Positions 1-62,398 of a DNA stretch of 62,398 nt are shown piece by piece. Below the pieces are notes generated by a model, which saw only the letters and a list, made by a program, of their open reading frames with translations, did no database searches and was not told the origin of the DNA. The translations under genes and the position numbers were made by a program. Source of the stretch: a bacterium (GTDB lineage: Bacteria > Patescibacteriota > Gracilibacteria > UBA1369 > PNNO01); contig JAGGUZ010000016.1 of NCBI GenBank assembly GCA_021158225.1, forward strand, positions 1-62,398, in the 5' to 3' direction. Position 1 is the first letter of the stretch. Each line of letters begins with the position of its first letter.

Positions 1-36
1 ATCATCTTTGACATTATCATCTTTGACATTATCATC
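1..36. repeat. 15-bp tandem repeat ATCATCTTTGACATT (2 full copies + partial; may continue beyond window) encoding DDNVK repeats
   Basis: Read directly: atcatctttgacatt atcatctttgacatt atcatc. Confidence 0.85.
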
Positions 37-102
37 GCCAATAGGCTTAATTGTAAGCTCATCGTTTTGCATTGATAACGGCTGTTTGCTTTCTTCTGGC
101 AT
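1..102 (-). CDS. Partial hypothetical protein (5' part; runs off window start), acidic N-terminus MPEESKQPLSMQNDELTIKPIGDDNVKDDNVKDD
   Basis: ATG (cat at 100-102) opens a frame with no stop to base 1; AT-rich upstream region shared divergently with the S41 protease gene. Confidence 0.6.
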   Translation of the reverse strand, partial: MPEESKQPLSMQNDELTIKPIGDDNVKDDNVKDD

Positions 103-209
103 ATTAAATCTTAATTTTTCTTTTAATTATAGCATTTTTCTTGTTTTCTGTAAATTTAAAAGAACATAACATTCCACTATAGTAAACGTTGATATTTAAT
201 CAAAATAAT

Positions 210-1892
210 ATGATTCTAAACCTAAAACGCATCACAATTGTTTTTGTAATTTTAATACTTTCATACAAAGGTACATTCGCCTCATTTACCGATGTTATCC
301 CGCAAAGTCTTTTCTTTGATGCCGTCAATTACTTTTCGTACGAATACCCAATTATAGGTCTTGATAAAGATAATTTTAGGCCGTTGAGCAAAATAAACAA
401 AGCTGAGTTTTTTAAACTTCTGATTGAAAGCGGAAACACGAATTCACCTGCCGATTCCGTTGACAGCCCATACAAAGATATAAACGGAGACGAATGGTTT
501 GCCAAGTATATAAACACAGCTCTTAAATTAAATCTTATCCATTTTGATCCTGATGATCCGTATTTTAGACCCGGAAACACTATTAATCGCGCCGATGGAC
601 TTAAATATATATTATCTTATTACGGAATAGATCCGGACATTATAGGAAGTTTTTCGAAAGATTATACGGATATCTCTCAAAATGATTATTTCGCAGATGA
701 ATCACAAGTCGCATATATGTTGAAACTTCTCTCGGATTATAAGTTAAAAAGATTTAATCCATACAAAGAGCTTACCAGAGCACAAACCGTTTACATACTT
801 TACAAATTGCATCAATCGGGATTTACAAATAGCACTATGACGAAGTCAAATCCCGTAGAAATACGCGAGAAAGAGTCATATAAACTTTTCTTGGATGTTT
901 ACGATACAATTTTGGATGAATATGTCGACAAAGAAAAAATAGATGAAAACAGTTTAATTTACGGAGCCATATCCGGGATGGTTACAAGTTTAAACGATCC
1001 ATACAGCACATTCATGCCTCCTCAAGACGCACAAGGATTTAGGGAATCACTTTCCGGAGCATTTGATGGGATAGGCGTTTATTTATCTTATAAAGATGGG
1101 AATTATATCATCCAAACACCGTTAAAAGGATCCCCGGCGGAAAAGGTGGGGCTTAAACCAAATGATATTATAATCGATATAGATGGTCAAAATACGACAG
1201 ATATGACATTTGATAACATAACAAATATGTTAAAAGGACCATCCGGAAGTAAGGTTGTCCTTACAATTAAAAGAAATTCTGTTCTAAAGAAATACACATT
1301 AACACGCTCACTTATCGACATTCCGTTTGTTGAGGGAGAAATAATAAACGGCGTTGGCGTAATTCATTATTATCAATTTACAAGCAATTCCAATTACCAA
1401 TTTACTAACAAACTAAATACAATTTTAAACAAAAACCCAAAAGGACTAGTTATAGATTTAAGAAACAATCCTGGTGGGTATGTTTATAGTGCTCAGCAAT
1501 TCATATCAAGATTTCTGGCAGAAAGTGAGCCTTTTGTAACTGTCAATCTTGCAGACAATTATTCTTATAACGAAGTTTCCTACGGTCCGGGAGATCTTTC
1601 AAAATATAAAATTGTCGTTTTAATAAATGGCGGAAGCGCATCAGCCTCAGAAATTGTTGCACTTGCGCTTAAAGAAAATTTGGGAGCAAAAATAGTTGGA
1701 ACACAAAGTTTTGGAAAAGGAAAAATACAAGAAGTTATATCTTATAAAGATGGATCTTCTTTAAAATTAAGTATGGCACAGTGGACTTCCCCAAACGGAA
1801 TTTCCGTAGAAGACGGTGGCATAATTCCCGATATTGAAATAACAGGTGAATCAAATCAACTTAATAAAGCTATATCCCTGGCGACTCATTAG
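210..1892 (+). CDS. S41A carboxyl-terminal processing protease with signal peptide, N-terminal S-layer homology (SLH) repeats and PDZ domain
   Basis: SLH-like motifs FTDV..FRPLSKINKAE, YKDI..WF..FRPGNTINRAD, FNPYKELTRAQ; SLNDPYS, PDZ GIGVYL/GSPAEKVGLKPND; catalytic DLRNNPGG, SASASEIV, SFGKG. ATG 210 preferred to TTG 189. Confidence 0.9.
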   Translation: MILNLKRITIVFVILILSYKGTFASFTDVIPQSLFFDAVNYFSYEYPIIGLDKDNFRPLSKINKAEFFKLLIESGNTNSPADSVDSPYKDINGDEWFAKYINTALKLNLIHFDPDDPYFRPGNTINRADGLKYILSYYGIDPDIIGSFSKDYTDISQNDYFADESQVAYMLKLLSDYKLKRFNPYKELTRAQTVYILYKLHQSGFTNSTMTKSNPVEIREKESYKLFLDVYDTILDEYVDKEKIDENSLIYGAISGMVTSLNDPYSTFMPPQDAQGFRESLSGAFDGIGVYLSYKDGNYIIQTPLKGSPAEKVGLKPNDIIIDIDGQNTTDMTFDNITNMLKGPSGSKVVLTIKRNSVLKKYTLTRSLIDIPFVEGEIINGVGVIHYYQFTSNSNYQFTNKLNTILNKNPKGLVIDLRNNPGGYVYSAQQFISRFLAESEPFVTVNLADNYSYNEVSYGPGDLSKYKIVVLINGGSASASEIVALALKENLGAKIVGTQSFGKGKIQEVISYKDGSSLKLSMAQWTSPNGISVEDGGIIPDIEITGESNQLNKAISLATH

Positions 1893-4251
1893 TATCAGTT
1901 GCCTCAGGTATATCCTCCTCCGTAGGAGCCTCTGCAGGCGTTTCCTTGTTAGAAGTTTCTACAGGCGTTTCTTCTTCTAAAGTTTCTTGTGCAGGGACAT
2001 CTTCTTCCTGAGTTCCTTCCAAAGCCTCTTGCTCCCCTACGTACTCCGTCTCTTGAGCCGCAGATTTAAGCATCTGTTCAGGGTTTGTGGTAACAAGCTT
2101 GTCCTCCCCATACGATGCTATAACTTGAATTGCAACATGCTTATTCCCAGCAAAAAATAAACCTTGTCCAACTCCGCTGTTTAATAGCATATATCTTTCT
2201 CCTTCAGTTAAATTAAAAATTTTCTGCAAGATATCAAGAGCGGCCGGCGCCTGTTTTAAAAGCAATTGCATCGAAGAATTAGTAATAATCGGTTTTCCAA
2301 ATGAATTTTGAACAAAGTCTTCAACATCCTGAGTAATTGTAGTTACTCCCAAATAATATTTCCTAGCTCTTTTTACAAGCCCGTAAAGAAACTTTGCGGA
2401 ATCTTCGTGTTGCATAAGAGACCAAGCCTCATCAATAATAAGAAGTCGTTTTTTTAGAGAACTTCTTACCCTGCCCCATATGAAATTAAGAATTATATAC
2501 ATGGCAATCGGACGAAGAGCGTCCTCAAGATCTCTTATACTAAAGACAACAAGACCTGATGTTAAATCGATATTTGTTGTTTTATTAAAAATCCCCGAAT
2601 ACGTTCCTTGTGTAAATTTTGCAAGTCTTGTAGCTATTCCCTTTGCCCCATCCATAGAATTTAAAATATCGTATAAATCCTCCATGGTCGGTGGTGAAAA
2701 TGTCGATGGATCCTCTGTCTCCATCGTGATACCCCGAAGCGCATAAACATCAGTCAATGCTTTATCCAATATAGCTTCTTCCTCCGGAGATATACCTCCA
2801 AGCATAATTTTAAGTAGCCCATGAAGAGAGATAATATTTGATCGCAATAAATCTCCGGGCTGAACAACTTCATCTTTTAAAGGAGCAGGCAAATCAAAAG
2901 GATTAATTCTTCTGTCTGCATTAAGCGAAACTTTCATATAAGATCCTCCAACCGTCTCGCATAAAGACTCATACTCATTTTCCGGATCAATAATAATCAC
3001 ATCAGCCCCAAACATAAGTGAACGCAAAACTTCCAATTTAACCGCATAAGATTTACCTGCCCCGGATTTTGCAAACACTACTGAATTTGCATTTTCAAGA
3101 GAGAATCTATCAAAAATAATCAAACTGTCGTTATGCCTGTTAAGTCCATACAAAATACCTTTATTTGAAGTAAGCTCCGCAGAATTAAACGGAAACATTG
3201 TAGATAAAGGCGATGTATTCATGTTTAATGTCACATCAAGCTCATCCAAACAAAGAGGAAGTGTTGAATTAAATCCATGTTCAGTTTGAAAATCAGCTGT
3301 TTTTGTCATAATAAGTTTTCCACCAAGTACACTTTCGAGCTGTTTTGCAACTCTTTTAAGTTTCTTCTTATCTTCTGAATAAACCGTCATATATAACGCA
3401 AATTGGAAAAATTTCTCTTGTCCTCTTTGTATTTGCGTTCGCAGTTCATCGGCATCTTGAAGCGCGGTTTCTATGGCAGGATCACTTACGTTCCCCTTCT
3501 CAGCCGACATACGAATTGAAGATTGCATTTGAGCGACTTTCCTCTTTAAAACTTTCATAATCGCCGAAGAGTCGATTGGGTAAACAAATTGAGCGATATC
3601 CATAGTTACATCAAAATTGATCACTGGAGAAAGCCAGTTTGAATCTAAGTACCGCGGATATGCATATACATAAAATGTTTTGGCATACATCCCCTCGACA
3701 CGAATTGAATCAAAATCTATATCCATCGAAGATGGTGAAATAAAATCACGAATCGTAGAAAGACCTTCCTGATACAATTTTTCAGCTTCTTGGAAACGTT
3801 TTTTCTCCTCCGGAGTCATAGGAGATTCTTCTTCCTTCTTCCCTAAAGCAGCATTTTTCGTTGCCTGCTTAGCGTATTCAGCTCTACTTTTGTCCGTTAA
3901 AGAAAACATTTTCTTAAAATTATCGAAAATACTTTTCTTTTGAGAAGCTTTTTTTGCTTGATTACTTTTTTGTGAAGCATCCTGAGCAATTGGACTTTCT
4001 GGTGAAACAGCTTTAACTTCAGCTTTTTCCTGCACTTTAGACTCCTTAGTCACGAGAGTTTTATCTTTATTGCTCGCATTTTTAACCCATGCCGGCAATT
4101 CAGCATCCGATTTAGACAGTTCGGAAGAAGTTTGATTAGTCTTTTTCATGCCTTTTTCAAGCCAAGCAGGAGCTTGCACATTATCTTGAGTAACCTCCTT
4201 TTCTACGGTTTTCGTATTTTGTGCTTGTTGATTTTTTGTTTCTTCTGTCAT
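1870..4251 (-). CDS. VirB4/TraG-like (HerA-FtsK superfamily) ATPase with disordered N- and C-terminal extensions
   Basis: Walker A AKSGAGKS, IIIDPENEY, INPFDL, Walker B IIDEAW, KRARKY, ITQDVEDF; start moved to ATG 4251; overlaps the S41 gene 3' end by 23 bp. Confidence 0.85.
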   Translation of the reverse strand: MTEETKNQQAQNTKTVEKEVTQDNVQAPAWLEKGMKKTNQTSSELSKSDAELPAWVKNASNKDKTLVTKESKVQEKAEVKAVSPESPIAQDASQKSNQAKKASQKKSIFDNFKKMFSLTDKSRAEYAKQATKNAALGKKEEESPMTPEEKKRFQEAEKLYQEGLSTIRDFISPSSMDIDFDSIRVEGMYAKTFYVYAYPRYLDSNWLSPVINFDVTMDIAQFVYPIDSSAIMKVLKRKVAQMQSSIRMSAEKGNVSDPAIETALQDADELRTQIQRGQEKFFQFALYMTVYSEDKKKLKRVAKQLESVLGGKLIMTKTADFQTEHGFNSTLPLCLDELDVTLNMNTSPLSTMFPFNSAELTSNKGILYGLNRHNDSLIIFDRFSLENANSVVFAKSGAGKSYAVKLEVLRSLMFGADVIIIDPENEYESLCETVGGSYMKVSLNADRRINPFDLPAPLKDEVVQPGDLLRSNIISLHGLLKIMLGGISPEEEAILDKALTDVYALRGITMETEDPSTFSPPTMEDLYDILNSMDGAKGIATRLAKFTQGTYSGIFNKTTNIDLTSGLVVFSIRDLEDALRPIAMYIILNFIWGRVRSSLKKRLLIIDEAWSLMQHEDSAKFLYGLVKRARKYYLGVTTITQDVEDFVQNSFGKPIITNSSMQLLLKQAPAALDILQKIFNLTEGERYMLLNSGVGQGLFFAGNKHVAIQVIASYGEDKLVTTNPEQMLKSAAQETEYVGEQEALEGTQEEDVPAQETLEEETPVETSNKETPAEAPTEEDIPEATDTNESPGI

Positions 4252-4411
4252 GGTCGTCCTTAAATAAAATCTTATTAGTATAGCAAATTTTGAGATTTTT
4301 CTCAAGCATTGCCCTATAAAAAAATCCTATGCATTAAATCAAATTTTGTGCTAAAGTTTGCAACGGCTAATTATCAAATAGCCTTTTGATTTCTGTTACT
4401 AATTTTAGAAC

Positions 4412-56173: not shown

Positions 56174-56833
56174 CTACATAAGTCCCTTGGCAAGATCGGT
56201 TAAAATCTCATATGGATTATTGGCTTTTGTAACTCCAGAGGCAAGCAAAACTCCTGATGCGCCAAGCTGAATTGCTTTTTTAGTATCTTGTGAATTTTTT
56301 ACTCCGGCCCCAACAAGCAATTTTATATCGCCGACAAGAGAAACAGCCTTTGTAACGACTTCCGGTTTTGCACTTGAGATAGAGATATCTCCGCCAATTA
56401 ATTCCGGAGGTTCAACGGCAATGAAATCCGGATTAAATTCTGCTATTTTAGCAGCCACTTCAGGCGTATTTGCACATACACATGTAGTAAGACCAACATC
56501 TTTAGCCCTTGCAATAGAAGATGCAATAACATCAAACTCAAGCTGATGTTCGGCATGATTAAGAAGTGTTCCGTACGCCCCCGCCTGCTTTACAACTTCC
56601 GGCAAAATACTTCCCGTATGTGATCCATATGTAATCGGATCTACATGCTGAGCAAAAACCGGGATAGACACTTCTTGAGTAATACGATACAAATCAGTCG
56701 CCTGTACACAAATTGCAAAAGAAATTCCTGTTTCTCTTGCCACTTTATCATGGACTTTCGCTAATTCAAGAGCATTATCTCCTGTTGCAGACTCATATGT
56801 CTTAAAATTTACTATTACGGTTGGAAGTTGCAT
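56174..56833 (-). CDS. tpiA: Triosephosphate isomerase, archaeal-type short form
   Basis: 219 aa; VNFKTY, AQHVD..GSHTG, LLNHAE, AVEPPELIG, VGAGV, GVLLASGVTKA. Confidence 0.9.
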   Translation of the reverse strand: MQLPTVIVNFKTYESATGDNALELAKVHDKVARETGISFAICVQATDLYRITQEVSIPVFAQHVDPITYGSHTGSILPEVVKQAGAYGTLLNHAEHQLEFDVIASSIARAKDVGLTTCVCANTPEVAAKIAEFNPDFIAVEPPELIGGDISISSAKPEVVTKAVSLVGDIKLLVGAGVKNSQDTKKAIQLGASGVLLASGVTKANNPYEILTDLAKGLM

Positions 56834-56995: not shown

Positions 56996-59900
56996 ATGTT
57001 TCTCAAAAAATCAATGCATTTCTTAAATAATGTCTTTAAAAAAGAATTATTTATATGCGAATCCAAACCGGTTTATCTGTCTTTCCGTAACAATGAAACA
57101 AGAACCGAAAGAGTTGTTCCAAATGAAACAGTAAAAGATCGAATGTCATTAAATCGCAAAGCGATAAAAAAACTTAGAGAAGAACTAGCAAAGGGAAAAG
57201 AATATAAAAAAGGATTTGAAAAATATATTGGAAAGAAAATATTTAGAAATACATATAAAAAGAAATTAACAGAAAACGACACTATGAAGATGGGGATAGA
57301 TATGGTTGGAATACTGTTAAATTATTTGCCCAAAGAAAAAAATCGCAAAGAAACAAGTAATCGATATAATTTTATAACTCCTCTTCTCGAAGATATTTCC
57401 AAAATTGCAAGAAGTAACTTGAACATAATCAATCGATATATACCTATAAGTATCCAACTTGGACCCGGTAGTGTATTAGAATTTTACAATGATAAAAAGA
57501 AATTTAGTTTAAAATTCGATTTAGAATTGGACTCACCAAGGTTACAACTTATTCAAAGTCAGCTAGATCATCTCCAAAGATCAAAAGAAAGAAAAGCCCA
57601 AGTAAGAGAGCAAATTCACGCAAGAACAAGAACACAGCTTTCCGGAATGAGACAATCCATAAACCCATCGGCAGAATTTACAAATCAACTGATGAGGACA
57701 TCAAAAAGTCCATATCTAAAGAAAAAGGGTGATATATTTGTAATTGATTTTAAAGGAAAATCAAAACATATTGATAGAAAAGCGGAAAAACAAACTAAAA
57801 TACAAGACATACTTGATTTAAGCCGTTTGAATGGCGGGAATATGTATGTGCGTATTCATCTTGATGGCGTAAGTCCCAACGGTGTAAAACATAAATATTG
57901 GGCATATTATCATCCTACACAAAGAACATTTATAGTGGAGAGAACAACAAAAAGAGCAAGGGTATTTCATGGAACAAAAATAGATAAAATCGAATATAGA
58001 GTAGCTACACCAAAAAAGGCTACTATGCCAATAGTAGCTCCGAGTAGGAAACAAAAAAAGGCCCCTCGTATTAGTGAAAGTAGAAGACGCGCCGAAAGAC
58101 TTGGAAGAATTGAACGAAAAAACTGGGATAATTTTCATAGAAACCATGCCTATATTTTCAAAAACAAGCGTTTTTATGTTCCAAGATTCATTCAAGATGA
58201 CGATGATTTTAAGAACAACTGGGGAAGAATTGATGCGACCTTGGAAGGATCGCTTGCAAGACCTCCTTTTAACTTAAGAAGTACAAAAGCAAGAAGAAAA
58301 TATATACAAGATGTTATACAGGGAAATTCAATGTTTGATCTTAATAGTAGACTTTATGCGCAAGACTTCTTTGAAACGAAAGTTAATGGGAAAAACCTTT
58401 ATAAAGGTGGATATAAAAAGTTCTTAAAAGATTTCCATTCGGTCGATAAAAAAATGGCAAGACTCGGCATGGATTACCTACATCCGCGAAATGCTGAAGA
58501 AACAGACCTTGCTAAAAAATGGTCTAAATTACAATCAATAGCTTTCGGACTGGCAAGCGTTTTTAACGCACTGGGAAGATTAAGTATTCATCCAAAGCAA
58601 GCTGAAACAAATACAGACATATACAGAATTAAATTCCTTGGAATTAAACAAATCAGCGAAAGAGAAATGAAAAAACTTAGACCTCTTAAATACCACAGTT
58701 TGCAATCACTCCTTCATGGCAAGGAAAATGCTCCATCGGGAATTGATATTGGAGTAAGTAACAAAATACTAACAAATATCAAAGATATTGTCATAGACAA
58801 TGAAGCTCCAAATTTAAATATAAGAAAGCTATTAAAAGCGAAAGGTGGTTTAAAATTAATGTTTATGGCTTTCGGATTAAATAGCTTAATCGAAAGAGGA
58901 TGTGTTAAAAAGCTGGACGGCAAACACTATGTAATTGTTAGAATCCCAACAAATGGATGGAGTAACGCACTTTTAACAATAGAAAACAATAAAGCGAAAT
59001 TGTATGACCCATCAAGAGAGAACCTAAAAAAATGGGAAGAGGTTCGAGAATCAATAAATAATGGTAGACGTGCAAGAAATTTCATTCTTAAAATATTTAG
59101 ACCAAACGGATCTGAGGTAAAACAAAATATTAATTGGTGGAAAAAATTATGGCATTGGGATTTTAAAAATAAAAAGAAAATAACAATGGCCTATCTTGGA
59201 AAAATAACTTTAAATCCAAGCGACTTAGAGAAACATGTAGCCACCGATCGCGGATATTGGGATATGATGGAAAAAACTTCAAAACGAGTTGAAGGAACTT
59301 CTTTATATGAACCGCAAAAAGAGAAGGTTCTAAGATTATCCAACCAATATTTGGAATACGGATTACTGGCAACTTTTATGAACACAAGTCCGAAAAATCT
59401 AAAAGATGTTACTAACCAAATACTGCGAGATTTCGACATTGAAAACAAAGTACATTTAAAAACCCCTCTTAATAAGAAAGAAAATAGAATAGGAAACATT
59501 AAAGAAATACATAGAGCAATCTCGTTAAAAGGTTTAAATCCGGCATATCTTACAAATGCTCATATTAAAATGATTCGAATGGGATATGTACTTGGACGAC
59601 AAATTGAAACTGCAAGCAACTGGAGCGAAGTAATGAAAGATAATTTATCGACAAAACCTTTATATAGAAAAATTCAGTTAAAAGCTTTAAGAGACGGCTG
59701 TCCTATATATAAATTAAAGGAGGTTGAACAAAGAGTGCATCTTGCCATATTCGGACTTTCGCAAAGCATGCATGCTCCCGGTGTACACAACCTTAATGTA
59801 CGCGGAGGGGGCGGTGCCGTTGCAATTGATCTTGGAGAATGGGCCGGTCAAAAATGGCATATGAGCGTTGGAGCCGCCGGAGTAGATGGCAAATTCATGC

Positions 59901-62398
59901 CATTTGCAGAAGTTGGAGCTGCAATTAAATTAGGGAAAAAGGTTAAACTAAAATGGAGTCTTGGTACAACAATCGGCTTTAGCGGAGCTTCAGCTGCTGT
60001 TGAGTTCCCTGTTACAAGCGAATGGGATATGTATGTGGGAGCGGGAGTCGGCGTTGACTGGCAAGGTAAAGCTGGAATCGGAGCCGCAATCGGAGCTAGA
60101 TGGGACAAACTGAGAGCAGAGAGGATCCGTGAAACAAAAGCTCTAAAAGAAAGAGGAGTAAAAGAAATAGATAAGTTAATAAGTGCCGGTAATACAGAAA
60201 GAGCGGTAGCACTTATTTTAAGAAATAAAACTTTCGGAGAATATGTAAAAGCACTTAAAGCTAAATTTAATTTACCAAGTTCTGTTCTAGTAGACATCTA
60301 TCAAAATGCAAGAACACAGTGGCTTAATGCCGCACGAAGAGGCGTTAAAATCCCGGCAGTAACAGGATTTGGAGTTGGAGTGTTTGCCGGAGCAAGTGTA
60401 AACCCAGGTGAAACCGGTGTTAGTGTTGGAGCTTACATAACATTTAAAATCCCCGGAACAACCGTTAATTATGTAATAAGACAAGAACATCCAAAATATT
60501 CCGAGTATGTTCAAACCCAAATTGCACAAGAAACCTTAAAAAAGAAATTATTAAAAGCCGGTAACGGCAGAAATGTTATTTCATCGTTTGTCTTGTCCGC
60601 AAACAGTGGAGTTGTATATTTTGATTCAAGACTCGGACGCGGACATATTGCAAGACCAAACGGTACAAGTGAGATGAGACAATCTATTGCCATAAGACAA
60701 GGACGGGAACAAATTGCTAACATTGCAAGGAAAGGTACTCTTGATGCAATTAGACGAACATTTTCGAATTTGGATATGCATGTAGAAATGGTTCCGGATC
60801 CAAAAAATCCAAAACAACATCTACTTGCAATTAGCCCACTTCAAACGCAGGGAAGCAATGTTGAAATGCTCATCGATCCAAAACTTAAGAGCAAAGGAAT
60901 TATTTTAGACAAAGCAAATAACAGAATATTGCTTGCGGCAAGCGAAGCACGCAAGCTTTATGTAACTCGAACAAAATATAGATATCCGTTTGCTCGAAAA
61001 GGCGCAATGAATCTTGAAGTAATTGCATTCAAAGACGATCTAAGAAGAAGCAATATAGAGATTAGAGAAGATTCTCCGCACTATATATATAAGTATAAAG
61101 GAGAAAAATATGCAATGGTTCGAGGTGAAGCCAGAACCGGTCTTTCAGAAGAGAGCAGTAATACAATAACCCTTGAACAGTATAAAAAAAGAAAAGCAAG
61201 ACTCGAGACATTCAAAGATAAAAAACTCGAATTTAGTCTTCTGGAAGGTAAAAAATTAACATCAAAAATGTCAGATGCGGTTGGATATAAAGAACAAGAA
61301 CCTGTTAGATTCGACCAACTTAGACTTAAAGATTTTGCAGACAGCGTATTGGAAAAGCATATGGAAGCATTCCAGAAAGGCCTTGTAAGAGTTGATACTC
61401 CTGAAAAAGAAGCGATATTTAAGACAGAGGTTTTTGGAAGATTAAAAGATGATTTTAAAAAATTCGCGAAAGATATTCTTAAAAATCCAAATTTATCATT
61501 AAATGAACAAGAATTAAACCTTCTATACACTTATATGATCAACCAATCGTTCTCTAAACTAATGAGCAAAAGTGAAGCTGTTATTAACAGACGGCTTGAA
61601 AAAAGAAATAAGTTGTTTAGAGCTTATATGAAAAATTATATAAATAACTTCAAAGCTAAATATCCTGACAAATGGGCGGAAATAAAAGCAATAGATCCTA
61701 CAATAAGTCCGGACTCAATTGCTAATTATTTAATGCTTACAATGCCTCAAAACGCAAATCAATTAAGAGCATTCTTAGGAAGAAAAGGATTGCCAATCGA
61801 AGAAGGATTAAAATTTGCTTCTTACACAAGAAAATATGATGACAAGCACAAGGCACACGAGGCATTCGCAACATCTTACGGAACTCAAATGCCGGAAAGC
61901 ATGAAACCGATCTTGGAAATGGTAAACCCCACTAAACTTAACATAAATTCTCCAGATCCAAGAGAAAGAGCTGCCGCAAGACTTATTTTACAAGTAATGT
62001 CACCTCTAAGTACGGAAAATCTTGAAACACCACAAGGTAAAAAAGATTTCTTAACTTCCGAGCTTTCACTCCTTGTAATTTCCATGTATGACGAAAAAAC
62101 AGGTATTTCACCAATGATAGAAGTGCTTGGAAAGAAAAATTATCAAGGAATGATTGCAATTTACAAAGCTCTTAAAGAAGGAAAAGGATTAGCTGGTGCA
62201 ATTAATGCAAACTCACAAGCATTTGATCAATTTAAGATACTTGTTATGGGTATCCGAAACGCACAATTAAATGCGCAACCTACATTTGTATTTAAAAACA
62301 AATATATATTCCATTTAAATAAAACCGAAGTTTATTCAGGTCCATATTTAAAATGCGGAAACGGAACAATCGCCGCAAGACAACAAATCGGACTATCG
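56996..62398 (+). CDS. Giant hypothetical protein, partial (at least 1801 aa, runs off window end; missing from the ORF track)
   Basis: Read codon by codon from ATG 56996 (MFLKKSMHFLNNVFKKELFICESKPVYL...) to ...ARQQIGLS with no stop; promoter upstream; the short ORFs listed here are shadows. Confidence 0.9.
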   Translation, partial: MFLKKSMHFLNNVFKKELFICESKPVYLSFRNNETRTERVVPNETVKDRMSLNRKAIKKLREELAKGKEYKKGFEKYIGKKIFRNTYKKKLTENDTMKMGIDMVGILLNYLPKEKNRKETSNRYNFITPLLEDISKIARSNLNIINRYIPISIQLGPGSVLEFYNDKKKFSLKFDLELDSPRLQLIQSQLDHLQRSKERKAQVREQIHARTRTQLSGMRQSINPSAEFTNQLMRTSKSPYLKKKGDIFVIDFKGKSKHIDRKAEKQTKIQDILDLSRLNGGNMYVRIHLDGVSPNGVKHKYWAYYHPTQRTFIVERTTKRARVFHGTKIDKIEYRVATPKKATMPIVAPSRKQKKAPRISESRRRAERLGRIERKNWDNFHRNHAYIFKNKRFYVPRFIQDDDDFKNNWGRIDATLEGSLARPPFNLRSTKARRKYIQDVIQGNSMFDLNSRLYAQDFFETKVNGKNLYKGGYKKFLKDFHSVDKKMARLGMDYLHPRNAEETDLAKKWSKLQSIAFGLASVFNALGRLSIHPKQAETNTDIYRIKFLGIKQISEREMKKLRPLKYHSLQSLLHGKENAPSGIDIGVSNKILTNIKDIVIDNEAPNLNIRKLLKAKGGLKLMFMAFGLNSLIERGCVKKLDGKHYVIVRIPTNGWSNALLTIENNKAKLYDPSRENLKKWEEVRESINNGRRARNFILKIFRPNGSEVKQNINWWKKLWHWDFKNKKKITMAYLGKITLNPSDLEKHVATDRGYWDMMEKTSKRVEGTSLYEPQKEKVLRLSNQYLEYGLLATFMNTSPKNLKDVTNQILRDFDIENKVHLKTPLNKKENRIGNIKEIHRAISLKGLNPAYLTNAHIKMIRMGYVLGRQIETASNWSEVMKDNLSTKPLYRKIQLKALRDGCPIYKLKEVEQRVHLAIFGLSQSMHAPGVHNLNVRGGGGAVAIDLGEWAGQKWHMSVGAAGVDGKFMPFAEVGAAIKLGKKVKLKWSLGTTIGFSGASAAVEFPVTSEWDMYVGAGVGVDWQGKAGIGAAIGARWDKLRAERIRETKALKERGVKEIDKLISAGNTERAVALILRNKTFGEYVKALKAKFNLPSSVLVDIYQNARTQWLNAARRGVKIPAVTGFGVGVFAGASVNPGETGVSVGAYITFKIPGTTVNYVIRQEHPKYSEYVQTQIAQETLKKKLLKAGNGRNVISSFVLSANSGVVYFDSRLGRGHIARPNGTSEMRQSIAIRQGREQIANIARKGTLDAIRRTFSNLDMHVEMVPDPKNPKQHLLAISPLQTQGSNVEMLIDPKLKSKGIILDKANNRILLAASEARKLYVTRTKYRYPFARKGAMNLEVIAFKDDLRRSNIEIREDSPHYIYKYKGEKYAMVRGEARTGLSEESSNTITLEQYKKRKARLETFKDKKLEFSLLEGKKLTSKMSDAVGYKEQEPVRFDQLRLKDFADSVLEKHMEAFQKGLVRVDTPEKEAIFKTEVFGRLKDDFKKFAKDILKNPNLSLNEQELNLLYTYMINQSFSKLMSKSEAVINRRLEKRNKLFRAYMKNYINNFKAKYPDKWAEIKAIDPTISPDSIANYLMLTMPQNANQLRAFLGRKGLPIEEGLKFASYTRKYDDKHKAHEAFATSYGTQMPESMKPILEMVNPTKLNINSPDPRERAAARLILQVMSPLSTENLETPQGKKDFLTSELSLLVISMYDEKTGISPMIEVLGKKNYQGMIAIYKALKEGKGLAGAINANSQAFDQFKILVMGIRNAQLNAQPTFVFKNKYIFHLNKTEVYSGPYLKCGNGTIAARQQIGLS

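Follow-up and report, generated by a model that had tools for sequence, protein, structure and literature searches.

A block of amphipathic strands within a giant bacterial protein is predicted to form most of a single-chain transmembrane beta-barrel of 10 to 11 strands, similar to those of outer membrane proteins (OMPs), and the protein appears to belong to the core set of Peregrinibacteria and related Gracilibacteria-class lineages. In our best reading, to which we assign a rough probability of 0.42, the protein would be exported by a non-Sec route, insert without BAM, and serve as an anchor and narrow conduit, most likely in a host membrane, beside an Ig-type surface protein. The window analyzed here is the whole of contig C6 (JAGGUZ010000016.1; 62,398 nucleotides) of the source genome, G000, a 0.99-Mb, 99% complete genome of the Peregrinibacteria type. 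The sequencing runs listed as containing it were DNA runs labelled hydrothermal vent metagenome, a probable origin of the sequence, with no RNA run among those listed.

RESULTS

A giant protein contains a block of alternating strands

The features of the window that enter the argument are as follows.

1870-4305, minus strand: VirB4-like ATPase, CD1110 family, above cut-off
56174..56833, minus strand: tpiA, divergent and upstream of the giant gene; marks the conserved locus
56996..62398, plus strand: giant protein gene, aa 1-1801 of about 1,885, truncated at the 3' side where the contig stops
57059..57076, plus strand: N-terminal E-x-[RK]-x-[VI]-aromatic motif, aa 22-27, a candidate non-Sec export tag with a putative function
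59735..59770, plus strand: strand 1, aa 914-925, a wall strand in both models at low confidence
59798..60103, plus strand: barrel strands 2-8, aa 935-1036, pLDDT 77-92, with a hydrophobic face against a Gly/Ala/Ser face in column profiles
60107..60340, plus strand: helical insert that separates strand 8 from strand 9, aa 1038-1115, in both models
60359..60445, plus strand: barrel strands 9-10, aa 1122-1150, in both models and in column profiles
60455..60481, plus strand: neck strand, aa 1154-1162, prolonging strand 10 out of the membrane (DSSP of model 2; pairing presumed)
60776..61123, plus strand: conserved soluble alpha/beta domain, aa ~1261-1376, with Arg1325 invariant and Asp1294-Pro1295 near-invariant
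61172..62269, plus strand: large soluble domain, mainly helical, aa ~1393-1758, from an ortholog model with pLDDT mostly 83-98
62354..62362, plus strand: invariant Cys1787-x-Asn1789, in 67/67 aligned rows with a residue there, code-25 relatives included

The part of the giant protein that lies beyond the contig end was supplied by a full-length counterpart, P0021 (1,885 aa, 99.1% identical). The protein has a pI of about 10 and carries neither a Sec signal nor a transmembrane helix. Its beta-strand block spans aa 914-1151. An earlier note, made from the letters of the window, had described membrane-type strand blocks here, and the peptides it quoted were recovered at aa 937-1036 and 1119-1151, 82 residues apart. 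Nine of its roughly ten strands lie in the quoted text, and the tenth (aa 914-925) falls within the block it delimited but was left unquoted.

Strict 7-mers alternating between uncharged hydrophobic residues and Gly occur five times, whereas 20,000 composition-preserving shuffles averaged 0.48 and reached at most 4. This count was also the highest among the 930 ORFs of G000, where the runner-up had 2, with a pattern that was ad hoc and devised after the block had been seen. The alternation is not a product of chance. An earlier alternation score was discarded because membrane helices scored as well, and an antisense ORF at 59848-60297 was set aside as a probable shadow of Gly/Ala codons. Differences from the ortholog in genome G002 (0.23/0.17/0.52 by codon position over 239 codons) indicate that the frame is under purifying selection. 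Two further giant frames were noted in G000, one of about 5,000 aa with a signal-like N-terminus (C25:17727-32834, minus strand) and one of about 1,800 aa (C1:13392-18791, plus strand).

The family libraries gave little with which to name the protein. Pfam returned no match for the window protein, the block, P0021, or P0031; for 17 orthologs, it returned weak matches plus a DUF1340 match (1.2e-6) in a single ortholog, and no SH3 or LysM module at an E value of ≤0.05. PHROGs and NCBIfam had no match for the giant protein, and a sequence search of the PDB found nothing below an E value of 1.5. The best ESM Atlas score, 0.83, is a lead at most, and nothing was returned there for the C-terminal part. 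Internal repeats were absent from 28 full-length proteins. The family was undescribed in the mostly open-access literature searched. The giant protein is real and conserved and fits no known family.

Two structure models predict an OMP-like barrel

Model 1 (AlphaFold2) was built for aa 850-1350 from 50 sequences. It contains ten strands, the eighth and ninth being separated by a helical insert, and its pLDDT is 77-96 over aa ~940-1130. The best fold matches to this model were the designed barrel TMB10_163 (8uzl; Z 14.7, rmsd 3.0, 141/143 residues aligned), OpcA (Z 13.5), and Dot/Icm porin I (Z 13.1), followed by soluble 10-stranded barrels at Z 10-11.6, among them Rv2717c (11.6) and nitrobindin (10.4). 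Model 2 (AlphaFold2; 49 sequences) covers 939 aa of the G003 ortholog, starting at the barrel and stopping where the last strand ends. With a mean pLDDT of 86.9 and a pTM of 0.61, it contains the same ten strands, confident soluble domains, and an extended chain at the end. Its top 13 matches were all 12-stranded membrane barrels (KdgM, Z 14.2; AIDA-I, 14.2; BrkA, 14.0; rmsd 3.1-3.6). With the C-terminus included, the Rv2717c score dropped from 11.6 on model 1 to 7.9 on model 2, and the match to 8uzl was also weaker with the C-terminal strand present (Z 10.2 on model 2). The AlphaFold monomer check proposed by the earlier note gave an OMP-like beta-barrel in two models of different orthologs, and the soluble beta-sandwich or solenoid that it had named as the refuting outcome appeared in neither.

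The aligned range of model 2 in the top matches is 34..939 and ends at residue 937-939, and the target ranges of the 12-stranded matches presumably end about one strand before their C-termini; this suggests that the last Gly-rich strand is strand 11 and sits beside strand 10. This glycine-rich strand, about 650 residues downstream, is accordingly predicted by model 2 to join the barrel. It lies at aa ~1830-1840 of P0021, just past the window end, with a pLDDT of 67-80, and over 63 rows it alternates between hydrophobic positions (0.89/0.78/0.65/0.62) and small ones (0.92/0.67). From Cys1787-x-Asn1789 on, an extended chain runs back to the barrel in model 2, and the tail that follows the last strand is 16% Pro and 14% Gly. 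The lone Cys-x-Asn near the C-terminus may be catalytic. At the other end of the block, strand 1 clearly forms half of a hairpin in most families and looks helix-like, by eye, in the giant protein's own family and in the code-25 clade. A wall of eleven could close only through a parallel seam; alternatively, strand 1 could be a plug within a wall of ten. Both the closure and the in/out orientation of the barrel are what we infer from the models.

AlphaFold has a bias toward joining alternating strands into closed barrels. Covariation in 74 sequences placed the pair of strand 10 and the last strand at rank 73 of 156 and missed most known hairpins as well, and a script-based comparison of loop lengths could not separate the two barrel sides apart from the two large inserts. 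Foldseek with model 2 returned nothing at an E value of ≤0.001 in PDB or BFVD.

Alternatively, several chains could each contribute these strands to the stem of a pore-forming toxin that lyses the host, in which case the monomeric barrel would be a prediction artefact. In the giant protein, the bulky domains would all lie on one side, the hairpin tips lack charges, and long strands return, a layout that resembles beta-pore-forming toxins such as alpha-hemolysin, aerolysin, and MACPF/CDC, whose protomers contribute one or two hairpins each. Host killing, as described for Vampirococcus (PMC8080830), would also suit a toxin. However, the at least ten strands per chain suffice for a monomer, two models of different orthologs give a closed single-chain barrel at high confidence, and the single-copy, syntenic inheritance of the gene is unlike that of polymorphic toxins. 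No pore-forming toxin fold occurred among the matches listed, in lists filled by the barrel and barely covering the other domains. We consider a toxin stem quite unlikely. The earlier note had allowed for either a barrel or pore-forming hairpins, and of the two, the models favor the single-chain barrel and disfavor oligomeric hairpins.

The composition of the barrel faces favors a membrane barrel

On one face of the barrel, large hydrophobic residues account for 66% and charged residues for 1.7%, and the opposite face is 48% Gly and 6% charged, as scored at 77 positions in 42 orthologs (42 of 50 rows after a 70% identity filter) with faces assigned by hand from column profiles. The exposed faces of soluble strands in the same protein are 53% charged. 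The hydrophobic face is also more variable than the soluble core (2.5 versus 1.7 bits). Column profiles place charges and most aromatics at the strand ends on the insert side, leaving about 9-11 uncharged residues per strand, a length that suits a thin bilayer. Judged by composition, the faces are unlike those of a soluble barrel, and the hydrophobic face presumably contacts lipid.

We considered that the barrel may never enter a bilayer and may be a soluble carrier of a ligand or lipid, with the hydrophobic residues inside and the glycine face covered by helical domains. Such a carrier would agree with the Nitrobindin/Rv2717c-type matches to model 1, with the many helices of the protein that could cover it, and with an organism that has no BAM. 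On the other hand, both faces are nearly free of charge, the hydrophobic one is too variable to resemble a core, and the soluble matches fall once the C-terminus is included, and we regard this alternative as improbable. The membrane-type barrel read by the earlier note is backed by the two structure models, the fold searches, and the face composition together. We hold the barrel fold itself to be very probable and its embedding in a membrane to be probable; of the weight given to embedding, a little over half goes to a host membrane rather than to the cell's own.

The gene is conserved in two orders and beside a surface-protein gene

With the block alone as the query, matches were found in 15 of 61 related genomes and in 20 library representatives. 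The barrel-to-end profile matched 126/155 genomes of the order and 82/97 genera. The gene is mostly single-copy, and second matches, among the rows examined, were additional segments of the long frame already matched or of one broken by contig boundaries. Class-level searches matched 50 and 53 of 300 genomes, and a phylum-level search matched 10/301, four of these being weak, glycine-rich, and outside the class (E 1e-4 to 7e-7). The weak class matches turned out to be full-length relatives, two of which open only with TGA read as Gly. Translation with table 25 leaves these frames (L098:4542-9146 and L100:3814-7233) intact, whereas table 11 breaks them up, and the family is consequently missed by standard gene calling in code-25 genomes. 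In the code-25 order, a single-protein query matched 57/101 genomes and a clade profile 69/86, with many of the matches spanning the barrel alone or the C-terminal part alone. The two clade profiles align across the barrel and insert with a probability of 97.9% (E 4e-13). Several large families of the class had no match to the class-search profile (f25, 0/51; f26, 0/33; f40, 0/25; f28, 0/16), which is insensitive (3/51 in a family where the clade profile gave 69/86), so that these absences are specific to the query. NCBI names a close ortholog as Ca. Peregrinibacteria and one code-25 member as Ca. Gracilibacteria.

Ortholog length varies between about 1,100 and 5,000 aa, chiefly in the N-terminal part, and the anchors that flank the insert between strands 8 and 9 are 66-124 residues apart. 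A divergent tpiA lies upstream in most of the order's loci. On the downstream side, either adjoining or separated by one or two small genes, is the gene for a partner protein of 1,100-2,050 aa with a signal-like N-terminus (for example, L017:3121-6690 and, in G000, C4:1-624, a 3' end that opens contig C4). The partner is acidic and of the Sec type; some copies have DUF11/Ig matches, and most have no family. In the giant protein's own family, a gene for a single-helix membrane protein of 160-180 aa was seen between the giant and partner genes. On gene content, the family can be called near-core in two orders, with a Sec-type surface-protein gene adjoining.

Export and insertion machinery

The earlier note had pointed out that CPR are considered to lack an outer membrane and had proposed a genome search for BamA. 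The searches agree with a lack of outer membrane machinery: BamA/Omp85 (PF01103) was found neither in G000 nor in any of 151 genomes of the order, and TolC, secretin, and LpxC were absent from G000. The window does hold VirB4, and G000 has three pilus-type ATPases. An N-terminal hydrophobic stretch of the Sec type was present in 0/45 orthologs versus 12/12 partner proteins, the call being a hydropathy rule (KD11 ≥ 2) instead of SignalP.

Near the N-terminus, 23/45 orthologs carry the E-x-[RK]-x-[VI]-aromatic motif in its strict form. The same motif occurs in 4/682 N-termini of G000 versus 0.57 expected, and in none of the control windows, with a pattern that was fitted after these proteins had been seen. 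It also opens three unrelated G000 proteins (C10:13713, C20:8175, and C25:342), where a charged low-complexity stretch follows, and was found in 0/115 proteins of the code-25 clade. The motif is a candidate lineage-specific sorting tag. In genome G031, tpiA and the giant gene are separated by the gene for a 225-aa protein that likewise starts with this motif (L024:5261-5935).

DISCUSSION

The mechanism that we propose begins with export of the chain by a non-Sec route, possibly type IV secretion or pilus machinery. The ten strands of the block and one C-terminal strand, which is predicted to return along the soluble domains to sit next to strand 10, would then form the barrel, with the bulky domains all on one side and the short loops and Pro/Gly-rich tail on the other. 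Insertion would occur without a BAM complex of the cell's own, and where the cell meets its host, the barrel would serve as an anchor and narrow conduit next to the adhesin-like partner. Whatever the orientation, the hydrophilic tail must cross the bilayer, which counts against this reading.

A location in the cell's own membrane is almost as probable as one in the host's. In this alternative, the same barrel would sit in the single membrane of the CPR cell. Either the basic soluble domains would gate a channel from the cytoplasmic side, or the protein would be displayed outside, with its last strand and tail retained in the cell as a stop-transfer anchor, in the manner of a monoderm autotransporter. 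The lack of a Sec signal in 45/45 orthologs and the pI of about 10 suit a cytoplasmic protein, no export step would be needed, and the gene is single-copy and vertically kept. In OMPs, short loops usually share one side with the C-terminus, opposite the large inserts, and the layout of the giant protein matches this arrangement. However, an open pore in an energised membrane is harmful unless plugged, no insertase was found in G000 (nor Omp85 in the order), and an N-terminal motif common to three unrelated proteins suggests sorting. We give this alternative a real but minority chance.

The host-directed reading can be extended to a class-wide, BAM-independent conduit of Gracilibacteria-class epibionts. 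An exported chain would form an 11-stranded, or plugged 10-stranded, glycine-lined barrel in the host membrane, the C-terminal strand would lock it, Cys-x-Asn would fix or process the contact, and the epibiont would gain direct access to host contents. This extended version is, on present evidence, unlikely. The family reaches into the code-25 order, the kind of lineage that holds cultured predators. Published accounts describe the way in which Patescibacteria obtain host nutrients as largely unknown (PMC11665869; PMC8080830), and a near-core gene in two orders offers a concrete membrane module relevant to this uptake. If our reading is true, the barrel may be how these host-dependent, single-membraned bacteria plug into the host cell, and a BAM-less, monoderm, single-chain barrel closed by a strand 650 residues away would be a new way of building a beta-barrel.

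Comparison with known systems

The block alone is closest to the 10-stranded barrels TMB10_163 (8uzl), OpcA (2vdf), and Legionella Dot/Icm porin I (9nh1), at Z 13.1-14.7. The soluble 10-stranded nitrobindin (3wjb) and Rv2717c (2fr2) share the same handed meander at Z 10.4-11.6 on model 1; unlike nitrobindin and FABP-like barrels, which have a polar outer face, neither face of the giant's barrel is polar (1.7% and 6% charged). In shape and size, the barrel is like the KdgM/NanC porins (4pr7 and 2wjr), FapF (5o65), and the COG4313 channel (4rl8), at Z 12.7-14.2 and rmsd 3.2-3.6. Identity to 12-stranded OMPs is 5-10%, and in contrast to them, the giant's barrel is internal and discontinuous, has no signal peptide, and is encoded in a genome without BAM. 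Rows of basic residues line the lumen of KdgM and NanC, whereas the presumed inner face of the giant's barrel is 6% charged and 48% Gly.

The beta-domains of type Va autotransporters (AIDA-I, 4mee; BrkA, 3qq2; Hbp, 3aeh; NalP, 1uyo) are similarly close, at Z 13.2-14.8. Shared with them are a large N-terminal region before the barrel and a small-residue lumen able to hold a linker. The models put the candidate linker-helix segment, the counterpart of the helix in an autotransporter lumen, in the wall at low pLDDT, and its sequence is helix-like in some clades. Eleven strands align, but the giant's barrel has inserts of 80 and 650 residues, and it is internal, with about 730 residues after strand 10, whereas the autotransporter beta-domain is contiguous and C-terminal. 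The giant protein also differs from type Va autotransporters in having no Sec signal, no terminal aromatic residue, and no Pfam or NCBIfam match.

As in BAM-client OMPs, an antiparallel amphipathic barrel is predicted, but the Sec signal, BamA, and outer membrane that accompany those proteins are absent here. Barrels of this class have an even number of strands and close in antiparallel fashion; in model 2, eleven strands align. The beta-signal consensus is given as LGLGYRF (PMC10629564). The last strand of the giant protein has a hydrophobic-Gly-hydrophobic alternation without the conserved Tyr and is followed by the Pro/Gly-rich tail. Collectively, these comparisons describe a protein that would work like an OMP barrel yet falls outside the BAM-client OMPs, autotransporters, and KdgM porins on tested features.
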